The notes below the pieces were generated by a model, which was not told where the DNA came from, did not search any database, and saw only the letters and a program-made list of their open reading frames with translations. Positions 3,960 through 16,208 of a stretch of 24,000 nt of DNA are shown here, piece by piece (the first letter of the stretch is position 1; each line of letters starts with the position of its first letter). Both the position numbers and the translations under genes were made by a program. Location: assembly GCA_041685165.1 (NCBI GenBank), contig JAWLGH010000024.1, forward strand, positions 1,002 through 25,001, given 5' to 3'. Origin of the DNA: Oceanipulchritudo sp. Its GTDB lineage: Bacteria > Verrucomicrobiota > Verrucomicrobiia > Opitutales > Oceanipulchritudinaceae.

Positions 3960-4029
3960 CTACTACGGGAGCGCACCGTTTCCCTGAAAACTGTAGGTGC
4001 AACCCCTTAGTGGGGGCCTCGCAGGATTA

Positions 4030-4075
4030 TCACCTCACCGTAACCTTCCGGTTGCATTGTCACCTTTCCGTAACC
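4030..4075. repeat. two 16-bp direct repeats (TCACCTCACCGTAACC / TCACCTTTCCGTAACC) spaced 30 bp apart in the divergent TonB-receptor/purD promoter region; candidate operator sites
   Basis: Read directly. The copies are at 4030-4045 and 4060-4075 and are 14/16 identical. Each is followed by GTTGCA (4051-4056 and 4086-4091). The inverted form TGCAACC lies at 3999-4005. Confidence 0.35.
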
Positions 4076-4123
4076 AGAAATCCTTGTTGCACCCCCGCCC
4101 TGCTTTCCTTCAGTCTCCCTCCG

Positions 4124-5407
4124 ATGGATTCCTCCCTCAATGTTCTCGTCATCGGTTCCGGGGGTCGCGAACACGCCCTCCTCCGGGCCTGCCTTGCAAG
4201 TCCCCGGGTGGCGGCAGTCGCTGCCGCTCCCGGCAATGGCGGAATGGCCGCGGAAGCCCCCTGCTATTCCCTCGATGTCACGGACCCCGCGGCCACCGTC
4301 GCCCTCGCCCGCGAACACGGGATCACGTTCGTCATCATCGGCCCGGAAGTGCCCCTCGCCCTCGGGGTCGCCGATGCCCTCCGGGATGCCGGAATAGCCG
4401 TCTACGGGCCCGGCCGCGACGGCGCCGTCCTCGAATCCAGCAAGGCCGCCTGCAAGGCCTTTTTCGGCAAGTACGGGATACCCACCGCCGCCTGGGGGAC
4501 CTTCTCCGAGTCCGAGGCCGCCCTCGCCTACCTCAAGACCTGCGACCTCCCGGTCGTCGTCAAGGCCAGTGGCCTCGCCGCGGGCAAAGGCGTCCTCATC
4601 TGCGAAACCGCCGCAGCCGCCGAGGCCGCCGTCCGCGGGATGCTTGAGGAGGACCAGTTCGGGGCCAGTGGCCGCGAAATTGTCATTGAGGAATGCCTCA
4701 CCGGCCAGGAGGCCTCGATCATGGTCATGGTTTCCGGGAACCGCTACCTCTGTCTCCCCCCCAGTCAGGACCACAAGCGTATCGGAGAGGGCGATACCGG
4801 CCCCAACACCGGCGGAATGGGGGCCTGCGCGCCGGCCGCGGTCGTTACTGAATCCGTCATGGAATCCGTCCGTCGCGACATCATCGAGCCCACCCTCGAG
4901 GGCTTCGAGGCCGAGGGCATCGACTACCGCGGAACCCTCTTTATCGGCCTCATGATCAATGAGGCCGGGGAACCACGGGTCCTTGAATTCAATGTCCGCT
5001 TCGGCGACCCGGAATGTCAGGTTCTTCTCCCCCTCTGCCAGACCGATCCCGTCGAATTGATGTGGAATTGTGCCAGGGGAACCCTTAAACCCCGGGAAGT
5101 GAAGATCAGCCGCGATCACGCCATGGTTGTCGTCCTTGCCGCCAAGGGCTACCCGGGTTCCTGTCCGAAGGATGATCTTCTCGGCCTGCCCCTTTCCCTC
5201 CCCGAAAACGTCCACATCCTTCATGCCGGAACCCGGATCGATGAAGAGGGGGTCCTGCGCAGCAGCGGCGGGCGCGTCCTCGGGGTCGTCGCCACCGGAC
5301 CCTCGCTCGGGAAGGCCGCCGAGGATGCCTATGCCGTCTGCGATGCCATCGAATGGGAGAACAAGGTCTTCCGTCGGGATATTGGTCATCACCAGTTGAA
5401 GTCCTGA
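4124..5407 (+). CDS. purD: phosphoribosylamine--glycine ligase
   Basis: From the ATG at 4124 the protein reads MDSSLNVLVIGSGGREHALL..., continuing through VVVKASGLAAGKGV and EFNVRFGDPE, which are typical PurD ATP-grasp motifs. The track ORF starts at a GTG at 4010, but those 38 extra codons have no PurD counterpart. Confidence 0.93.
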   Translation: MDSSLNVLVIGSGGREHALLRACLASPRVAAVAAAPGNGGMAAEAPCYSLDVTDPAATVALAREHGITFVIIGPEVPLALGVADALRDAGIAVYGPGRDGAVLESSKAACKAFFGKYGIPTAAWGTFSESEAALAYLKTCDLPVVVKASGLAAGKGVLICETAAAAEAAVRGMLEEDQFGASGREIVIEECLTGQEASIMVMVSGNRYLCLPPSQDHKRIGEGDTGPNTGGMGACAPAAVVTESVMESVRRDIIEPTLEGFEAEGIDYRGTLFIGLMINEAGEPRVLEFNVRFGDPECQVLLPLCQTDPVELMWNCARGTLKPREVKISRDHAMVVVLAAKGYPGSCPKDDLLGLPLSLPENVHILHAGTRIDEEGVLRSSGGRVLGVVATGPSLGKAAEDAYAVCDAIEWENKVFRRDIGHHQLKS

Positions 5408-5431
5408 AGCATCCACGCATCTTAGTTACCA

Positions 5432-6551: not shown

Positions 6552-7022
6552 ATGAAATCCCGTCCCTGGAAAGCCATCGCCGCCATGTCGGAGAACCGTG
6601 TCATCGGGTACCGCAACGCCCTCCCTTGGGATCTCCCGGAAGACTTCAAATGGGTCAAGGCATGCACCCGGGGCGCCGCCATCGCCATGGGCCGGAAAAC
6701 GTTCGAATCGATGGGAAGCCCCCTCCCGAATCGCGAGAACATTGTCATCTCCCGTTCCACCGACCACATCCCCGGATGCCGCGTCCTCCCTTCCCTCGAC
6801 GCCCTTGAGGCCTACCCGACCGATCGCGAGGTCTGGATTTTCGGGGGCGCCGAGATCTATGCCCAGGCTATGGACCGCACCGCCGAACTCTACCTTACCG
6901 TCGTCAAGGGCACCTTCACCGGCGATACGTTCTTCCCGCCTTTCGAGGACCAGTTTGTCCTCCAGGGGATCATCCGCGAAGAACCTGAATTCCGCATTCT
7001 CAAGTACCGCCACGCCGATTGA
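6552..7022 (+). CDS. folA: dihydrofolate reductase
   Basis: WKAIAAMSENRVIGYRNALPWDLPEDFKWVK...AIAMGRKTFESMGSPLPNRENIVISRS...VWIFGGAEIY is the DHFR signature. It lies immediately downstream of thyA. Confidence 0.92.
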   Translation: MKSRPWKAIAAMSENRVIGYRNALPWDLPEDFKWVKACTRGAAIAMGRKTFESMGSPLPNRENIVISRSTDHIPGCRVLPSLDALEAYPTDREVWIFGGAEIYAQAMDRTAELYLTVVKGTFTGDTFFPPFEDQFVLQGIIREEPEFRILKYRHAD

Positions 7023-7038
7023 GGCCCGCCCCCCATCC

Positions 7039-7839
7039 TCAGATCGCCGCAAGATCGATCTCAGGGAAAATAAGCTGGTTCGGGTCAAGGCAGGCCACCG
7101 GCCAGGGACAGTCCCCGTTGCCAAGTACCGCCCGAACCCGCTCAGGATGGTTGCAGTCCCGGCTCAGGTGAGCCATCAGGACGCGACGCCAGAGCGGTCG
7201 CTCAACCGATTCCAGGAAATCACGCGCCGCCGCGTTCGAGAGGTGCCCGTGCCGTCCCGAGATCCGCTGCTTTACCGAAAAGGGGCGCTTGGGGTCGCCC
7301 TCCAGCAGGTCCGGATCGTGATTGGCCTCGAGGATGAGCATCTGCACCTCCCGGACCAGCTCACCCAGCGATGCCGGGACATGTCCCAGATCGGTCATCC
7401 ACGCAAGGCTGCCCCGGGGATCAAAGAGGTCCTTCCCTCCCGTCCGGAAAACAAAGCCAACCGGTTCCATCGCGTCGTGCGGCAAGAGAACGGTTTCCAC
7501 GCTCAGGTCCTTGAAGGTGAAGCTGCCACCAGTCTCAAATACCTTCCACTGCAGGTCCCGGCTGAGTTTTCCCTGCGCCACCTGGGCCGTTCCGTAGTTC
7601 GCGAAAAACTGGAGGTGCCCGTGACGGGCAAGGCCGCGCAGACCCGCGATATGGTCGCTGTGCTCGTGCGTCAGGAAAACCGCGTCAATGGTCTCAATCG
7701 GTTTCCCGATCTGCTTCAGGAGGGCTTCCAGGCGCCGGCCACTGAAGCCCGCGTCAAGCAATATCCGGGTCCGCCGGGTCTCGATCAGGGCGCAGTTGCC
7801 GGAACTGCTCGTGCCGAGTATCTGGATGTGAAACCCCAT
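7039..7839 (-). CDS. MBL-fold metallo-hydrolase (YycJ/WalJ-like)
   Basis: [45 protein letters not shown]...[14 protein letters not shown] carries the HxHxDH metallo-beta-lactamase motif. The 266-aa length and N-terminus resemble YycJ-type proteins. Confidence 0.85.
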
Positions 7840-7942
7840 GGGGTCATTCCACGCCGGTCGCTCCCGCTGTCACGCATTTTCCTCGAAAACTTCCTCGAAT
7901 CTTGAAAGAACCCCTCCTTTACACACAGTCTTTACCAGAAAC

Positions 7943-10181: not shown

Positions 10182-11951
10182 TCAGCCAGTTTTCAGGAGG
10201 GAAAGGACAGCGTCAAGGGAACGTGTATTGAAAATATCCTTCACCCCGAGGCCCGCCTTGCGCGCCGAGAGAATACCCGCCTCGAGGTAATCGAGGTCCT
10301 CCACCGCATGGGCGTCGGGAGTGACCACGCACAGGACGCCTCTCGCCGCGGCGTGGCCCCAGTGGCGCCAGTCCATGTCCATCCTCCAGGGGTTGGCGTT
10401 CAATTCGATGAGGACGCCGTTCCGGGCCGCCGCCTCGATGACCCGGCGCAGGTTCACCGCATAGCCTTCGCGGCGCAGGAGGAGGCGCCCTGTCGGATGG
10501 CCGAGGATCTTCAGGCAGCCGGTATCGGTCGAGATGGCCCGGATGATCCGCTCCGTCATCTCATCCTCGCTCTGGCCGGTCATTGAGCCGTGTACGGAGA
10601 GCACGCAGTAGTCGAGTTGTTCGAGGATGTCCTTCCCGAAATCGAGGGTTCCCTCTTTGAGGATATCGACTTCGCAACCCGCGAACAGATGGGCCTGCCC
10701 CTTGTCCCGGGAAGCATTCAGCCGGCGGATTTCCGCGACTTGCTCGAGGAGCCGTTCCGCATCCAGTCCGTTGGCCTGGAAACTGGCTTTGGAGTGGTCC
10801 GCGATCCCGATGTAATCGAGTCCCCGTTGCCCTGCCGCACGGGCCATCTCCTCAAGGGTGTTGTGCCCGTCGGAGGCCCGGGTATGATTGTGGAAGGTTC
10901 CCCTGAGGACATCCAGCGCGAGGGGATGCTCGAGTCGACCCGCCTCGGCCAACTCCACTTCGTCCAGGCCCTCCCGCCGTTCCGGCGGTATGTACTCAAG
11001 CCCGAGGGCCTTGAAGAGGTCGGCTTCCTCGCTGATTCCGTCCCGGGCAAGGGGCCGGTCCAAGGCTTTCCCGCCATCCTCAGGTTCATCCCCCTTGGTG
11101 AAGATTCCCCATTCCGACAGGGAAAGGCCTCGGGCCAGGGCCCGTTGACGCATCTTCACATTGTGGTCCTTGGAACCGGTGAAATGATGCAGGGCAAAGA
11201 CAAACCGGTCGTCGGGAACCACGCGCAAGTCGGCCTGCAAGCCCCCTTCAAAGCGCACGCTGGACTTGGTCTCCCCCCGGGCCGTGACCTCGCTCACGCC
11301 CGTCCGGGTCGTGAACCACTCCATGATGGGGCCGGGGTCATCGGAGGAGACAATGAAGTCAAGGTCACCCACCGTCTCGCGCACCCGCCGGAAGCTGCCC
11401 GCAACTTCGGCCCGCCGGACCTCGGGAAGCTTCCGTAACGCCTCCAGAAGGGGCTGGGCCACCGGGCGGACGTCCCACCAGAGATGACGCTTGCCGTAGG
11501 CGATGCGGTTCTCAATCCCGCTGAGGATGTTCTCCACGGACTTCTTCCCGAATCCGGGCAGCCCCGCAACCTTGCCGGATTCGCAGGCCATCTTCAGGTC
11601 CTCGATTGTCTCGACCAACAGTTCCTGTTGCACTTTACGGATCTTTTTTGGCCCGAAACCCGGGATCTCCAGCATCTCCATGAGGCCGCCGGGGACGGAG
11701 GCCCTCAGTTTGTCGTAGTAGGGCAGTTCCCCGCTTTCGCGGAGGACGGCGATCTTCTCCGCAAGGGCCTTGCCGATACCACTCACTTTGTCCAGCCGCC
11801 CTTCCTCAATCAGCTTGTCCAGATCCTCATCAAGGTTCCCGAGGGCGCGGGCCCCCGATTGGTAGGCCCGCACCTTGAAGGGGTTCTCCCCCTTGAGCTC
11901 AAGGAGGATGGCGATTTCTTCCAGACGGTCGGCAATTTCCCGGACTTCCAT
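10182..11951 (-). CDS. polX: DNA polymerase/3'-5' exonuclease PolX (family X polymerase with C-terminal PHP domain)
   Basis: The N-terminus has HhH motifs ([47 protein letters not shown]). The nucleotidyltransferase core is [19 protein letters not shown]. The PHP domain begins at [17 protein letters not shown]. The product is 589 aa. Confidence 0.9.
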
Positions 11952-11993: not shown

Positions 11994-13742
11994 CTAACGC
12001 CTTTCCGCACCCTGCCGCCTCAGGCTCGCAAGGGTGTCCCGGACAAATTCGCGAAACGGCGTCACCCGTGCCCCCCGTTGGGCGTTCTCCTCCGCAATCT
12101 CGAAGGCGATACGCCACTGCCTGCAGAGGATCATCCAGGCATGCAGCAACCCGTGGCGGGGATCGTAGATGTGGGCGGCCTCCGAGGTCAGGCCGTTCAC
12201 TTCAAGCACCTTGAGGCCTTCCCCTCGACGCAGGTGGTCCTCATCCGGGGCCTTGAGGTCGAAGCGCCCGAAGTGGAATCCCGGGCAGGCTGCGGCAATT
12301 TCGTCCATCCGCTTCTCCAGTTCAGGAGTCCGCAGATCCGTGCCATCGAGGAAAAGGGAGCCGAGGGCATGGGTTCCCAGTTCCCCGAGGGCAAGGACCT
12401 CCCCCTTCGCGGGAATCCTCTCCAGTTCCCCGGCAAAGCGGTCGAGAAAGGTGTCGAGAAGGGCAATGGCCCGGGGGTGCTTCAGGATAAGGGTCTCGAG
12501 GGTGTCCCTTCCTGTACCGGTCACTTCCAGCTGCACTTTTCTGGCAATTGAAAAGGTCCGTCCCCGCGTTTCGGAAGGATAGCGGAAATGGAAAATACCG
12601 AATTCCAGGCCGCCGACGTATGCCTGCAGGATGGCCGTTCCCCTTAATCCCGCCAGCCAGCCCCGCGCCGCCTCCTTGTCCCGGATAATGGCCACCCCCA
12701 GTCCCCGCTGCCCCTCGTCCGGTTTCAGCACCACCGGCCAATCAAGGCCAAGGGCCTCCATCGCCTCCTCAAGGTGTGCCATTCGTTCGGGTACCGGCCC
12801 CGGAGGCAGGTTTCGCCAGGCCGGAAGGGCCTCCCCGTCGGCGGCCAGCGCCTCGAGCAGGGTGCCCTTGCTCTCACCCACCACCCCGCCGTGTGGCATG
12901 CAGGGATTGACCGCCGTGAAAAGGGTGGGCCGTCGATAGCGGAAAATCCCGAGGTAAAGGACGTAGAGGAACACCACCCAGTTCACCTGCCAGACCGGCC
13001 AGAATTCCCATTGGGTCGCCCGGATCCATTTCCCCCGCAGGCGGCGGCGGCCCCGCCAGGTGAAAAGGGGAATTCCGTAATGAAAAAAAATATACAGAAG
13101 GAGCAGGGCCAGCCCGAGGGCCGGCAGGGCGAGGGCCTCGTAATTCTCGTAAAGCCTCAGGAGCCGGTTCCCGAGCAGATGGCTCAGCCCGACGAGAAAG
13201 GGTGTCCAGAGGGCCGCCGCAAGGGCAAAGACAAGGACAAATCGTCCGAAGGGCGCATGCAGGGCCCCCGCGGAAAAGTAGGTCGCGGATCGCGTGCCCG
13301 GGATAAACCGTGTGATGAGAATGATCCAGGCACCGTATCTCCGGAATTGTCCCGCCGCCCGGTCAACGGCCCGCTCCGAGACGATTAACCGCGACCACCG
13401 GTGGCGAAGGAGCGGCCGCCCGAAAAAATAGCCCAGTCCGTAAATGAGGGTGTCCCCGACAAAAATACCGGCAAAGGCCGCCAGCGTCGCGGAGGCATAG
13501 TCGAGCCGACCGGTGGCCGCCAGCAGCCCCGCGCTGATGCAGGCGAGGTCCTCCGAAAGAAGGGTCCCCACCGATATCGCCAGAAGCATCAGCCAGCGTC
13601 CGGTCCCCGTTAACGGTTCCCCCGGGGAGGCCAGGATGTCCGGATCACCAAAATCGGGCAGGTGCCTGTAGGAAACAATGAAGACAACAAGGACCGCCGC
13701 CACCCCGAAGCCGCCGGCGAGGGTCTTAGCCCTCCCGTCCAT
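11994..13742 (-). CDS. fusion protein: N-terminal DedA/VTT-family membrane domain + C-terminal ATP-grasp carboxylate-amine ligase-like domain
   Basis: The N-terminal half is polytopic with DedA-type motifs (LSEDLACISAGLLAATGRL, FVGDTLIYGLGYFFGRPLL, ITRFIPGTRSATYFSAGAL). Extra TM helices follow, and then ATP-grasp motifs appear (WPVVLKPDEGQRGLGVAII, LQAYVGGLEFGIF, GLKVLEVNGLTSE = ExN). The start overlaps the upstream NRDE gene by 17 nt. Confidence 0.75.
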   Translation of the reverse strand: MDGRAKTLAGGFGVAAVLVVFIVSYRHLPDFGDPDILASPGEPLTGTGRWLMLLAISVGTLLSEDLACISAGLLAATGRLDYASATLAAFAGIFVGDTLIYGLGYFFGRPLLRHRWSRLIVSERAVDRAAGQFRRYGAWIILITRFIPGTRSATYFSAGALHAPFGRFVLVFALAAALWTPFLVGLSHLLGNRLLRLYENYEALALPALGLALLLLYIFFHYGIPLFTWRGRRRLRGKWIRATQWEFWPVWQVNWVVFLYVLYLGIFRYRRPTLFTAVNPCMPHGGVVGESKGTLLEALAADGEALPAWRNLPPGPVPERMAHLEEAMEALGLDWPVVLKPDEGQRGLGVAIIRDKEAARGWLAGLRGTAILQAYVGGLEFGIFHFRYPSETRGRTFSIARKVQLEVTGTGRDTLETLILKHPRAIALLDTFLDRFAGELERIPAKGEVLALGELGTHALGSLFLDGTDLRTPELEKRMDEIAAACPGFHFGRFDLKAPDEDHLRRGEGLKVLEVNGLTSEAAHIYDPRHGLLHAWMILCRQWRIAFEIAEENAQRGARVTPFREFVRDTLASLRRQGAERR

Positions 13743-14472
13743 GAACCGGTCCTTCCTCCGGGTATGTCAGCATGAGGGGATCCTCGAATCCGTCTCCGTC
13801 GGCCGCCCTCGCCCGGTAGACCATCGTGAAGCCCCCCGTCCCTGTACGGACCTCAGTCTGGCTCACCGTCCGGGCATCGTCCCGGTCCATGGTCATCCCT
13901 TCTGCCGGGTCGGGAGCTTTTTCCCGCAGGCGCCGGGCGAGGGCCGCCCGTCCCGCTTCCGGATGATTCGCATGGAAGTCGTCCCAGGCCTTCTTCCGTA
14001 TCACGGGAATACTCCCCGGGCGGTAAGAAGAGGTTGTAAACCAGCCGTCCCGGGCCTCTCCAAGGGTTAGCCGGGTCCCGTCCCAGTCCGCTTTAAGGAC
14101 CCCCTCGGGTGAAAGGATGAAGAGGTGAAAAGGCGCGTAGGCTTCCGGCTGACCGTTCCGCAGGGCCTTTTCAGCCTCCTCGCCTGAAGCTGTCGCCGCA
14201 AGGTCACGCACGAGGAGTCCGCGACTCCGGCCTCCCCCTTTGGACAATGAACCTCCAGTCGCGTACGAGTTCAGGAGGGCGACCGCAAAGCCCTGCGACG
14301 ACACCGCAAGCCAGGTTCCCCCGCCTTCGGGATCGCGGGCATACCCCAGGGTTCCCTGCGGCCCCGGATACAGGCAGGGCGCTTCCGCGGCAGCCCGGCT
14401 CCGCTGCTCGTCGCGATTGAAACAGGCCCAGAGGTCGCCATTGGTCCCGGTTTCCCAAGCAAACGTGCACAT
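13726..14472 (-). CDS. NRDE family protein (TANGO2 homolog)
   Basis: The N-terminus is M-MCTFAW, matching the family-typical MCT start, so the second Met at 14472 is preferred. The eponymous motif ACFNRDEQRSR is present. The ~248-aa length fits the family. Confidence 0.8.
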   Translation of the reverse strand: MCTFAWETGTNGDLWACFNRDEQRSRAAAEAPCLYPGPQGTLGYARDPEGGGTWLAVSSQGFAVALLNSYATGGSLSKGGGRSRGLLVRDLAATASGEEAEKALRNGQPEAYAPFHLFILSPEGVLKADWDGTRLTLGEARDGWFTTSSYRPGSIPVIRKKAWDDFHANHPEAGRAALARRLREKAPDPAEGMTMDRDDARTVSQTEVRTGTGGFTMVYRARAADGDGFEDPLMLTYPEEGPVHGREG

Positions 14473-14479
14473 CACCCAG

Positions 14480-14989
14480 TCAGTTTGTCTTCTCGCCCAC
14501 GTGCGAGAGGGTGGAAGGCGCTATCCCAAACTCCGCCGGAAGGCGGGTGAATCCAAAGCGTCGCGCAATCGAGGCAATGAGGGCATAATGATGGATGGTG
14601 TGGCTGAGCAGGAATTGCAGTTCTCTCCGCAGAGTCGTCTTGCTCCAACTGGAGCTTCCCCCGTCGTCCATCCGGATCTGCAGTTCCCGGTCAAAGTCGG
14701 CCTCCGAGACGGTGCCCAGTTTTTCTATCAGGTTTTCAATCAGGTGAATGGCCGCGTCCGGCCGGGTCTCAATGGATGTATCCCGACTCCGGGCGTCGTA
14801 ATCGACCCACCCCGGTTCCATCCCCGTCATGAAGGCTTTGTAATGATCCAGATTGTGCCTCAGATGACCTCCGATGGTGCTTCCGAACACCTCCGCGCAG
14901 GGTTTGCTGTAAAAGCCTTCGGGCAGATTTCGCAGGAGTTCAATCCCTTGCCGCAGGCAGGAGATATTGGAGACGGCAAGTGTGTTCAT
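14480..14989 (-). CDS. DinB-family (four-helix bundle, metal-binding) protein
   Basis: 169 aa with His-rich motifs at helix ends (GGHLRHNLDHY and LLSHTIHHYALI), typical of the DinB/YfiT superfamily. It ends 4 nt upstream of the NRDE gene start. Confidence 0.7.
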   Translation of the reverse strand: MNTLAVSNISCLRQGIELLRNLPEGFYSKPCAEVFGSTIGGHLRHNLDHYKAFMTGMEPGWVDYDARSRDTSIETRPDAAIHLIENLIEKLGTVSEADFDRELQIRMDDGGSSSWSKTTLRRELQFLLSHTIHHYALIASIARRFGFTRLPAEFGIAPSTLSHVGEKTN

Positions 14990-15104
14990 ATCATTGGATC
15001 AAATACCCTAGGCCGGGCCCTAAATGTCTTTCAACAACGGATTGGCTGAATATCGCCGCCGCCCTTGCCAAAGGTTCCCTTTCGCTTTTAAAACCAGCCT
15101 CGTT

Positions 15105-16208
15105 ATGTCCGAAAATTCCTTTGATACCGTGGAAAGCGCCATTGATGCCATCACCGATGGCCAGCTCGTCATCGTCGTCGATGACGAGGACCGTGAAAAT
15201 GAGGGCGACCTCATCATGGCCGCTTCCAAGGCCACCCCGGAAACGGTCAACATGATGATTCGCCACGGACGTGGTCTCATCTGCGTCCCCACCGTCGAAC
15301 CCCAGCTCAAGCGTCTCGGACTCAACCCCATGGTCGCCAATAACCGCGAAAGCCATCGGACCGACTTCACGGTCTCCGTCGATGCCGCCGAGGGCGTCAC
15401 CACCGGTATCAGCGCCGCCGACCGCTGCGAGGCCATCCGCATCATTGCCGATCCCGAGTCAACCGCTGACCGCCTCGTCCAGCCCGGCCACATTTTTCCC
15501 CTCCGGGCCCGTCCAGGCGGGGTCCTTCAGCGGGCCGGGCACACCGAGGCTGCCGTCGACCTCGCCGTCCTCGCCGGCCTTCCCCCGGCCGGTGTCCTCT
15601 GCGAAATCCTCAATGAAGACGGGACCATGGCCCGGCTCCCGGAGCTCATGACGTTCCGCAAGGCCTTCGGCCTCAAGCTGATCTCCATCAAGCAACTCAT
15701 CGAGTATCGCCACAACCGCGAAAAGCTTGTCGATCCGATCCATTCCGAACCCTTTCACAACGTCTATGGAGACTGGACCCTCCACCTTTTCCGTTCCCTC
15801 ACCGACCAGCGCATCCACTTTGCCCTCACAATGGGTGACCTCGATGAATCCCCCACCCTCGTTCGCGTCCAGTCCGAGAATATCCTCAATGATGTCTTTT
15901 CAAACCATGAAAGGGGTCAGCAGCGCTCCGTCGATCGCGCCCTCCAGCGCATCGCCAGCGAGGGACGGGGCGCCTTCATCTACATGACCCATTCCTGCGC
16001 CGGGCTCAATGTACCCCAGGTTTTCGCTTCCGATTCCGGTTCCTGCTTCCTTGAACCTGTCAGCATGGATTTCCGTGGCTACGGCCTCGGGGCCCAGATC
16101 CTCTATGCCCTCGGCCTCCGGCGTATACGTCTTCTCTCCTCCTCCAAACGCCGCCACATCGCCCTCGATGGCTACGGCCTCCATATCGAGGACTTTGTCT
16201 CCCCCTGA
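15105..16208 (+). CDS. ribB: 3,4-dihydroxy-2-butanone-4-phosphate synthase fused to a degenerate (probably inactive) GTP cyclohydrolase II-like domain (RibBX-type)
   Basis: The RibB half is intact (VVDDEDRENEGDLIMAA, HRTDFTVSVDA, PGHIFPL, GGVLQRAGHTEAAVDL). The C-terminal half aligns to RibA but has lost its Zn ligands: VRVQSENILNDVFSNHERGQQ replaces VHSECLTGD...RCDCG. The ATG at 15105 (MSENSFDTVESAI) is preferred over the ATG at 15024. Confidence 0.88.
   Translation: MSENSFDTVESAIDAITDGQLVIVVDDEDRENEGDLIMAASKATPETVNMMIRHGRGLICVPTVEPQLKRLGLNPMVANNRESHRTDFTVSVDAAEGVTTGISAADRCEAIRIIADPESTADRLVQPGHIFPLRARPGGVLQRAGHTEAAVDLAVLAGLPPAGVLCEILNEDGTMARLPELMTFRKAFGLKLISIKQLIEYRHNREKLVDPIHSEPFHNVYGDWTLHLFRSLTDQRIHFALTMGDLDESPTLVRVQSENILNDVFSNHERGQQRSVDRALQRIASEGRGAFIYMTHSCAGLNVPQVFASDSGSCFLEPVSMDFRGYGLGAQILYALGLRRIRLLSSSKRRHIALDGYGLHIEDFVSP

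Follow-up and report, generated by a model that had tools for sequence, protein, structure and literature searches.

What do three tightly packed genes of a DinB-superfamily protein, an NRDE/TANGO2-like protein and a membrane-tethered ligase do together, and is their proximity more than coincidence? The question is raised by a 24,000-nucleotide stretch of Oceanipulchritudo sp. DNA (Verrucomicrobiota; assembly GCA_041685165.1, contig JAWLGH010000024.1, positions 1,002 to 25,001), hereafter the window. On its minus strand, a DinB-superfamily gene is followed by a gene of the NRDE/TANGO2 family and by a third gene that fuses a VTT/DedA membrane domain to an ATP-grasp ligase domain. We class this trio as a cluster that would modify the head groups of membrane lipids, using enzymes in a combination not yet described. 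More specifically, we propose that it is a tailoring or handling module for acyloxyacyl amino-acid membrane lipids of the ornithine type (the products of OlsB/OlsA or OlsF), a proposal for which we see about as much chance of being right as wrong. The copy in the window has nothing unusual about it within its large family, and the interest lies in that family, not in this copy.

What could be read directly is the structure of the genes, the identity of their domains, the intactness of the catalytic motifs and the linkage of the genes. The preliminary description of this DNA had reported three minus-strand genes with a 4-nt gap, a 17-nt overlap and a set of family motifs, and it had expected the genes to be co-transcribed; all of the coordinates and motifs were found as stated. 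The DinB-like protein contains GGHLRHNLDHY and SHTIHHY, the NRDE protein contains FNRDE, and the fusion protein contains VVLKPDEGQRGLGV and LEVNG. The spacing from the DinB stop to the NRDE start is 4 nt if the NRDE gene begins at the GTG at 14475, and 7 nt if it begins at the very next codon, the ATG at 14472; the NRDE and fusion genes overlap by 17 nt (13726-13742). No terminator-like site was found between the three genes and, with such tight packing, co-transcription of the trio is likely. Its domain assignments held as well, with DinB, TANGO2 and VTT_dom above their Pfam cut-offs and the ATP-grasp domain recognized by PDB profile and fold searches. Proteins identical to those of the trio are annotated in metagenome-assembled genomes (MAGs) of Oceanipulchritudo sp. 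at NCBI (P0001, P0121, P0358), which assigns the window to a verrucomicrobium of the Puniceicoccales type. The plus-strand open reading frames (ORFs) that overlap the trio have no Pfam match, and we rejected these antisense ORFs as genes, taking them for shadow ORFs of a GC-rich region.

Is the packing peculiar to this genome? In a first survey, the ATP-grasp domain profile (A1) alone was run against one genome per GTDB species and found at least 574 stretches with a relative, of which 80 were fetched. The 84 loci analysed (L001-L083 and the window) come from at least 9 phyla. The groups covered are Verrucomicrobiota, Acidobacteriota, Planctomycetota, Gemmatimonadota, Actinomycetota, Gammaproteobacteria, Rhodothermia and Spirochaetes, together with MAGs labelled delta proteobacterium, Desulfocapsaceae, Desulfobacteraceae, Anaerolineales or Ardenticatenales. 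All ORFs of these loci, called mechanically and with several starts over-extended, were searched iteratively with the window proteins; 71 loci have at least 1.6 kb of upstream DNA. Among these 71, the fusion is accompanied by both DinB and NRDE in 37, by DinB only in 10, by NRDE only in 5 and by neither in 19. The order is DinB, NRDE, fusion, on the strand of the fusion and mostly with small gaps or overlaps, the exception being L075, where the NRDE match lies inside the called fusion ORF. In a second survey, metagenome contigs were scanned with a DinB profile, and the resulting 80 loci were annotated with hidden Markov models from the first survey. The gene after DinB was NRDE (27 loci), the fusion (13) or OlsB (3) in 43 of the 44 evaluable loci, and the fusion was present in 17 of 17 long DinB-anchored loci. 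Because the same gene order recurs across phyla, whether the loci are anchored on the ATP-grasp or on the DinB protein, the packing of the trio exceeds chance and is more than a local accident; the wider synteny that the preliminary description wanted to see surveyed does exist.

The company that the module keeps points to its likely substrate. When neighbouring ORFs were clustered and their representatives scanned with Pfam and NCBIfam, the commonest neighbours of the ATP-grasp-anchored loci were an Acetyltransf_5 gene (43/84) and a PlsC-type acyltransferase gene (41/84). Both usually stand immediately upstream on the same strand, but in L026 and L029 they are downstream and in L032 and L039 divergent. 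The best NCBIfam match of the Acetyltransf_5 partner is the L-ornithine N-alpha-acyltransferase OlsB (127-157 bits), and that of the PlsC-type partner is the lyso-ornithine-lipid O-acyltransferase OlsA (120-149 bits). In phyla other than Verrucomicrobiota, the module is as a rule placed straight after these two acyltransferase genes or after an OlsF-like fusion gene. The canonical operon reads OlsB-like, OlsA-like, DinB, NRDE and (alpha/beta-hydrolase)-VTT-ATP-grasp (L019, L045, L051, L057, L059, L074, L028, L025, L067, L015), and the full OlsB-PlsC-DinB-NRDE-fusion operon occurs in Acidobacteriota, Planctomycetota, Gemmatimonadota and Chloroflexota. In the metagenome loci, PlsC/OlsB stands directly upstream of DinB in 24 of 43 evaluable cases, and OlsB/PlsC is found in 13 of the 17 long DinB-anchored loci.

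This association is also seen where the operon has been rearranged or reduced. OlsB/PlsC is located downstream of the trio in L026, L029, L101, L136 and L152; in L085:5699-8738, DinB and NRDE come after an OlsF-type bifunctional synthase (Acyltransf_2+Acetyltransf_5) and the fusion is missing; and a KSB1 MAG has OlsB-PlsC-DinB only (L170:7386-9525). The last two arrangements tie DinB and NRDE to aminolipid synthases independently of the ligase. A linkage that survives shuffling, fission and partial loss argues for a shared function far more strongly than synteny that is simply inherited, and because OlsB/OlsA-like or OlsF-like genes are the recurring partners, the substrate is most likely an N-acyl amino-acid membrane lipid.

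The canonical operon is often headed by a Ferric_reduct+Rieske fusion gene and the genes of two proteins without a Pfam match. In many non-verrucomicrobial operon starts (L051:3628-6264, L048:3651-6100, L002:3451-6041, L017:2-1282), this head consists of a protein of about 180 aa, a membrane Ferric_reduct+Rieske protein of about 380 aa and a protein of about 270-320 aa, the first and last of which have no Pfam match; Thermoanaerobaculia and Multivorans loci add a pectinacetylesterase-like protein. The Ferric_reduct+Rieske gene group may be an oxidative tailoring set. A heme or redox link of the module through this gene was considered and rejected, since the gene occurs with and without NRDE.

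A second pattern within the 71 systems concerns the NRDE protein and the alpha/beta-hydrolase domain that many fusions carry at their N-terminus, for which a long fusion ORF (at least 800 aa) served as a proxy. NRDE accompanies 24 of 25 fusions without the hydrolase domain and 12 of 39 fusions with it, and only 2 of the 71 systems have neither NRDE nor a long fusion ORF (Fisher p=3e-8, uncorrected for phylogeny). The Ser-Asp-His triad pattern is conserved in the hydrolase domain. This pattern suggests that the hydrolase or acyltransferase functions of NRDE and of the alpha/beta hydrolase overlap, and that one can in part stand in for the other.

What, then, is the ligase? The fusion protein was modelled with AlphaFold 2 at a predicted local distance difference test (pLDDT) score of 87.3. 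Its membrane part matches VTT_dom over residues 70-187 (64.2 bits against a cut-off of 33.9) and keeps the RF(I/L)PGTR motif (R145, R151), the RF(I/L)P..R signature shared with DedA/VTT proteins such as UptA, YqjA/YghB and TMEM41B/VMP1. UptA is the best NCBIfam match of this domain (70.1 bits, 2.6e-19); with an equivalog cut-off of 250 bits, however, the protein is no UptA equivalog. It also differs from characterised DedA proteins in its fusion to an enzyme domain, often with an alpha/beta hydrolase in addition, an arrangement that is not described for them.

The ATP-grasp part reaches only a sub-threshold RimK match in Pfam (18.1 versus 21 bits). A profile search of PDB with this domain found the G domain of cyanophycin synthetase 1 (CphA1; 2.4e-8) and then CphA2, GshAB, D-Ala-D-Ala ligase (Ddl) and RimK, while Foldseek with the model of the whole fusion returned 7wae (9e-10), 3ln7 and Ddl at a probability of 1.00. 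The lysine of VLKP and the ExN magnesium ligands align with the PDB matches, and the Lys that binds ATP is conserved together with the D..E.N residues that bind Mg. To judge by its residues, with K340, G344, R346, E380, R493, D495, E514 and N516 all invariant, the domain appears fit for catalysis. In contrast, its scores against the specific NCBIfam families are far too low for membership, at 18-20 bits against cut-offs of 143-850 (TIGR02068, 20.4 versus 850; TIGR00768, 18.4 versus 143; archaeal Ddl-like, 20 versus 500). No NCBIfam family name was reached for any of the three proteins, and the fusion, like the module as a whole, lies outside every characterised enzyme family below the superfamily level.

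Another difference from CphA1, CphA2, GshAB, RimK and Ddl, none of which is fused to a membrane domain, is that the N-terminal ATP-grasp subdomain is reduced. In its place stand a basic helix and an aromatic juxtamembrane segment with ten invariant residues (W239, R241, W245, E246, P249, N279, P280, G286, E290 and K292). This segment travels with the ATP-grasp half where the gene is split. In Terriglobia MAGs (L039:7838-10897; also in L032), the VTT/DedA half (206 aa) is encoded apart from the ATP-grasp half, in the gene order DinB-VTT-NRDE-ATP-grasp, and the WEFWP juxtamembrane helix stays on the ATP-grasp half. An exhaustive profile search found 1774 representatives of the fusion at E<=1e-30 among 50%-identity clusters. 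Its full-length relatives number in the hundreds, and many of them carry the extra N-terminal alpha/beta-hydrolase domain and measure about 860 aa.

The NRDE protein belongs to Pfam TANGO2 (43.7 bits against a cut-off of 22.6, 5e-11), although the match covers residues 5-122 only, and a PDB profile search with it finds human TANGO2 at 7.5e-8. The ATG product starts M-C-T-F and, with the ATG directly after the GTG, this is the likely beginning of the protein. In the operon homologues, the start (M/V)-C-T and the N-R-D-E motif are invariant (45/45), and the start codon sits directly before the Cys codon in all 45, which bears out the N-terminal cysteine that had been proposed for an N-terminal-nucleophile (Ntn) hydrolase. 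The AlphaFold 2 model (pLDDT 93.2) has a strand from residue 2 and the four-layer alpha-beta-beta-alpha Cys-Ntn fold, in which the first strand carries the nucleophile at its N-terminus. Foldseek matches it to human TANGO2 and CV2077 and, after these, to acyl-CoA:isopenicillin N acyltransferase, to bile-salt hydrolases and to penicillin V acylase; the E values for TANGO2 and the last three range from 4e-10 to 1e-5. Once its Met is removed, the protein would expose the cysteine as a putative Cys-Ntn amidase or acyltransferase, and a catalytic role is favoured by the invariance of the start-Cys and of the NRDE motif among homologues. For bile-salt hydrolase, penicillin V acylase and isopenicillin N acyltransferase, the likeness is one of modelled fold, and the activity of the module protein is a prediction. 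With human TANGO2, HtpA and CV2077 it shares Pfam membership, the N-terminal Cys, the NRDE motif and a fold of alpha-beta-beta-alpha type (TM about 0.67 to TANGO2); it differs from human TANGO2 in being only about 17-19% identical and in forming a dedicated subfamily whose operons always include DinB, the fusion or Ols genes. The genes of NRDE proteins that are more distant (P0189, P0191) have unrelated neighbours, which makes the module linkage specific to this subfamily.

The function of TANGO2/NRDE proteins is itself disputed between heme trafficking, acyl-CoA binding and Cys-Ntn hydrolysis of fatty-acid amides (PMC10470608, PMC11867700, PMC13044924). The crystal structure of human TANGO2 (2026) led to a proposal of fatty-acid amide substrates, and its authors compare the fold with the same Cys-Ntn N-acyl amidases and acyltransferases (PMC13044924). 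We considered a role of NRDE as a glutaminase that feeds ammonia to the ligase and set it aside, given that its fold neighbours are N-acyl amidases and acyltransferases and that the alpha/beta hydrolase seems to substitute for it. Two loci deserve a separate mention. In a MAG labelled 'delta proteobacterium', the source annotation missed the NRDE gene and left an apparent gap of 700 nt (L003:7258-8004); the C-terminal part of this ORF looks odd in composition, and a frameshift is possible. In a Gemmataceae MAG (L086:1090-4783), a DFP/CoaB-like gene (PF04127) and an alpha/beta hydrolase encoded on its own come after an NRDE-fusion pair, and such a coenzyme A biosynthesis-type neighbour is curious beside the reported acyl-CoA binding of TANGO2.

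The DinB-like protein matches DinB_2 (32.6 bits, cut-off 24.8) and DinB (30.6 bits, cut-off 23) in Pfam, and its only match to PDB by sequence is a weak one, to the DinB-like protein 3dka (1.5e-3). An alignment of 24 homologues shows R44, H45, Y64, R67, R122, E123, H130, H133 and H134 to be invariant and H42 to be conserved in at least 90%; the putative metal-site histidines (H45, H130, H133 and H134) are thus all kept, and an FG(V/I)APST motif marks the C-terminus. With at least 3166 clusters, this is, by its conserved residues, a dedicated subfamily of the DinB superfamily. Domain fusions gave no hint to its function, since the top 120 of the 3166 matches are all stand-alone proteins of 166-206 aa.

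How could these parts work together? We infer the substrate, the product, the order of steps and the direction of transport from homology and gene context. An OlsB-type enzyme would N-acylate an amino acid and an OlsA-type enzyme would add the second acyl chain; in the Oceanipulchritudo genome, the genes for both would lie elsewhere than in the window. The VTT/DedA domain would hold the ATP-grasp domain at the cytoplasmic membrane surface, where the latter could phosphorylate the lipid head group at its free alpha-carboxylate and join an amine or amino acid to that carboxylate. Enzymes of the cyanophycin synthetase, GshAB, Ddl and RimK type form an acyl-phosphate on a free alpha-carboxylate and then add the amine of an amino acid, and the extension of a C-terminal carboxylate by cyanophycin synthetase, RimK and glutathione synthetase would be the model for this ligation. 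The product would be a peptide- or amine-extended aminolipid, and the VTT domain might present the lipid to the ligase, move the product across the bilayer, or both, following a synthase-plus-flippase logic as in MprF. NRDE, with its mature N-terminal Cys, would be a Cys-Ntn amidase or transacylase that acts on the aminolipid N-acyl amide or on an acyl-CoA donor, a need that the alpha/beta-hydrolase domain would cover on many VTT fusions. DinB would be a His-ligated metalloenzyme for a further head-group step.

Chemistry of this kind has precedents. ATP-dependent transfer of taurine to the carboxyl group of ornithine lipid has been known biochemically since the 1970s, with the enzyme and gene unassigned, and Ser-Gly and Orn-Ser-Gly aminolipids exist (PMC12971839). 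These precedents make carboxylate extension plausible; nevertheless, we hold this specific step of the ATP-grasp domain to be less likely than the general aminolipid claim. It is tempting to speculate that the fusion is a new bifunctional enzyme, which joins aminolipid-carboxylate ligation to product translocation in at least nine phyla, with NRDE as an amidase or transacylase of N-acyl amino-acid lipids. We offer this fuller version tentatively and think it rather unlikely to hold in every part.

Several points weigh against the aminolipid proposal. The scores of the OlsB-like and OlsA-like proteins fall far short of the equivalog cut-offs of 300-350; these partners are therefore OlsB/OlsA-family paralogues, and the family does not fix their amino-acid substrate. 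There is no OlsB, OlsA or OlsF gene in the 24 kb window, where the neighbours are housekeeping genes, and in Verrucomicrobiota the trio is usually alone, also in the cultured organisms Rubellicoccus peritrichatus, Pelagicoccus sp. and Oceanipulchritudo coccoides CK1056. The locus counts are uncorrected for shared ancestry. The homology of the ATP-grasp domain is silent on which partner bears the carboxylate, which makes acylation of a side-chain amine, or a soluble precursor, possible. Characterised DedA proteins handle undecaprenyl phosphate or glycerophospholipids, not aminolipids, and DinB has no assigned role in the aminolipid model. A bacterial NRDE homologue, HtpA of Shewanella, has been reported as a heme-binding, heme-trafficking protein (PMC10470608). 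Finally, the function of the module is a prediction from homology and gene context. As for the organism itself, the Opitutae taxonomy paper holds no data on the polar lipids of Oceanipulchritudo.

The solitary verrucomicrobial trio is among the facts that speak for another membrane substrate. The module could act on a glycerophospholipid head group (phosphatidylethanolamine, phosphatidylserine or phosphatidylglycerol) or on a cell-wall precursor linked to undecaprenyl phosphate, with the Ols neighbours reflecting co-regulation in membrane remodelling. The rank of UptA as best match of the VTT domain and the presence of Ddl and a pseudomurein ATP-grasp among the ligase matches would also suit this explanation. 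However, the UptA score is far under its cut-off, genes for peptidoglycan or phospholipid synthesis do not recur in the neighbourhoods, and OlsB/PlsC are the commonest partners (over 40 of the 84 loci), whose linkage persists when the operon is rearranged and when only DinB or NRDE is present. We give this explanation a small but real chance.

A different possibility is that the lipid comes later. The ATP-grasp domain would make a soluble dipeptide or amino-acid amide for N-acylation by OlsB, the VTT domain would move a small molecule, and NRDE and DinB would process the soluble intermediate. This would agree with the soluble substrates on which the nearest characterised relatives of the ATP-grasp domain act (GshAB, Ddl, L-amino-acid ligases) and with the fact that the operon's OlsB-like proteins are not equivalogs of the ornithine-specific OlsB. 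It accounts poorly for a ligase that is fused to, or encoded beside, a polytopic domain of the lipid-transporter type in about 1774 representative clusters, for the swap of the N-terminal substrate-binding subdomain for an invariant juxtamembrane segment, and for NRDE structural neighbours that act on lipid amides. We regard it as improbable.

The preliminary description had likened the trio to the pathways of low-molecular-weight thiols, in which a thiol-using DinB enzyme would work alongside an EgtC-like amidohydrolase and a ligase of the EgtA/GshB kind. Some members of the DinB superfamily are thiol transferases, Ntn amidohydrolases take part in making ergothioneine, and GshAB is among the ATP-grasp matches; at the level of superfamilies, the ligase, the DinB fold and the Ntn hydrolase are indeed those of EgtA/EgtB/EgtC and of the DinB-type bacillithiol and mycothiol transferases. 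The subfamilies, however, are others, and in more than 160 neighbourhoods no thiol-pathway gene recurs, be it EgtB, EgtD, a cysteine ligase or another. The consistent partners are Ols-like lipid acyltransferases instead, the module has a membrane-lipid context, and the NRDE fold matches N-acyl amidases and acyltransferases, not class II glutamine amidotransferases. The analogy is not supported, and we consider a thiol pathway very unlikely. Hardly credible to us is a heme-trafficking NRDE protein or a DNA-damage operon with PolX, for which the heme binding reported for HtpA (PMC10470608), the Ferric_reduct+Rieske protein of some extended operons, the naming of DinB as damage-inducible and a PolX gene 42 nt after the fusion with no terminator-like site might be cited, since heme binding by human TANGO2 was nonspecific in the crystal study (PMC13044924), the Ferric_reduct+Rieske gene is independent of NRDE presence, the start-Cys and NRDE motif point to catalysis, and PolX follows the trio in only 7 Puniceicoccales-type loci, a lineage-specific linkage on which we rejected a DNA-repair operon. 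We also rejected the trio as an anti-phage defence system, PADLOC matching none of the three proteins.

Set against described systems, the aminolipid module that we propose most resembles, by analogy, the tailoring layer of ornithine-lipid biosynthesis in function and MprF in architecture. It sits behind OlsB-like and OlsA-like or OlsF-like genes in many phyla, and an ATP-dependent carboxylate-amine ligase is the type of activity reported for cerilipin formation (PMC12971839). It differs from the Ols pathways in that none of the known tailoring enzymes (the OlsC/D/E hydroxylases and the OlsG methylase) is homologous to its three proteins, as well as in the sub-equivalog scores of its partners and the absence of an Ols gene from the window. 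MprF is an aminoacyl-phosphatidylglycerol synthase fused to a flippase domain, which uses aminoacyl-tRNA and acts on phosphatidylglycerol. The parallel would be one of design, an enzyme that modifies head groups on the cytoplasmic side and is joined to a polytopic domain that translocates lipids; there is no kinship in sequence or fold, and the module fusion uses ATP-grasp and DedA/VTT domains instead. Literature searches for DedA/VTT with ATP-grasp, or for combinations of OlsB, NRDE, DinB and DedA, found no description of the module, and 'ornithine lipid' with 'ATP-grasp' gave a single co-mention, a citation of a general ATP-grasp review. Two earlier statements thus stand: that no described pathway joins the three families, for which these searches returned none, and that the genes encode a candidate membrane-associated system combining ligation and hydrolysis, which the domain content of the proteins supports.

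Table 1. Coordinates of the trio and of the parts of the fusion gene in the window.
Feature	Position	Strand	Remarks
DinB-superfamily gene	14480..14989	-	169 aa; first in module; ORF listing and Pfam
NRDE/TANGO2-family gene	13726..14472	-	248 aa from ATG; 249 aa from GTG at 14475
VTT/DedA + ATP-grasp fusion gene	11994..13742	-	582 aa; ORF listing, Pfam and model
VTT/DedA core of fusion	13182..13535	-	residues 70-187; Pfam VTT_dom 2.1e-17
Basic helix, aromatic juxtamembrane helix and linker of fusion	12867..13058	-	residues 229-292
ATP-grasp ligase domain of fusion	11997..12866	-	residues about 293-582; PDB profile match and Foldseek

The surroundings of the trio in the window (Table 1) are of a housekeeping kind. 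Downstream lie genes for a TonB-dependent receptor, thyA, folE2, msrB, ThuA and PolX, and upstream lie a divergent ribBA and genes for a Cys/Met pyridoxal-phosphate enzyme, an S9 peptidase and glnD. The PolX gene (10182-11951) starts 42 nt past the fusion gene and ThuA follows 1 nt after PolX; because of these spacings and the lack of a terminator-like site between the fusion and PolX genes, PolX and ThuA may be co-transcribed with the trio. The listed ribBA ORF (15024-16208) begins 34 nt from the divergent DinB start. Its DHBP_synthase domain starts only at residue 37 and the orthologue of strain CK1056 measures 372 aa, so the real ribBA start is probably about 27 codons downstream, which would widen the divergent promoter region to about 115 nt (window 14990-15105). 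Two long ORFs have no Pfam family, one of 469 aa at 4007-5416 on the minus strand and one of 435 aa at 6598-7905 on the plus strand; the former is matched in length by an ORF on the other strand (4010-5407).

Because the module family is large and present in cultured strains, experiments on it are feasible. If our aminolipid proposal is true, one conserved bacterial operon would make three open problems testable, namely the function of TANGO2/NRDE proteins, the cargo of DedA/VTT proteins and the extension of aminolipid head groups. The TANGO2 family would gain a first natural substrate class, the N-acyl amino-acid lipids. Similarly, the VTT/DedA family would gain an identified lipid cargo, with the fused enzyme hinting at which lipid it is. 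Finally, a class of peptide- or amine-extended aminolipids would be spread across at least nine bacterial phyla.

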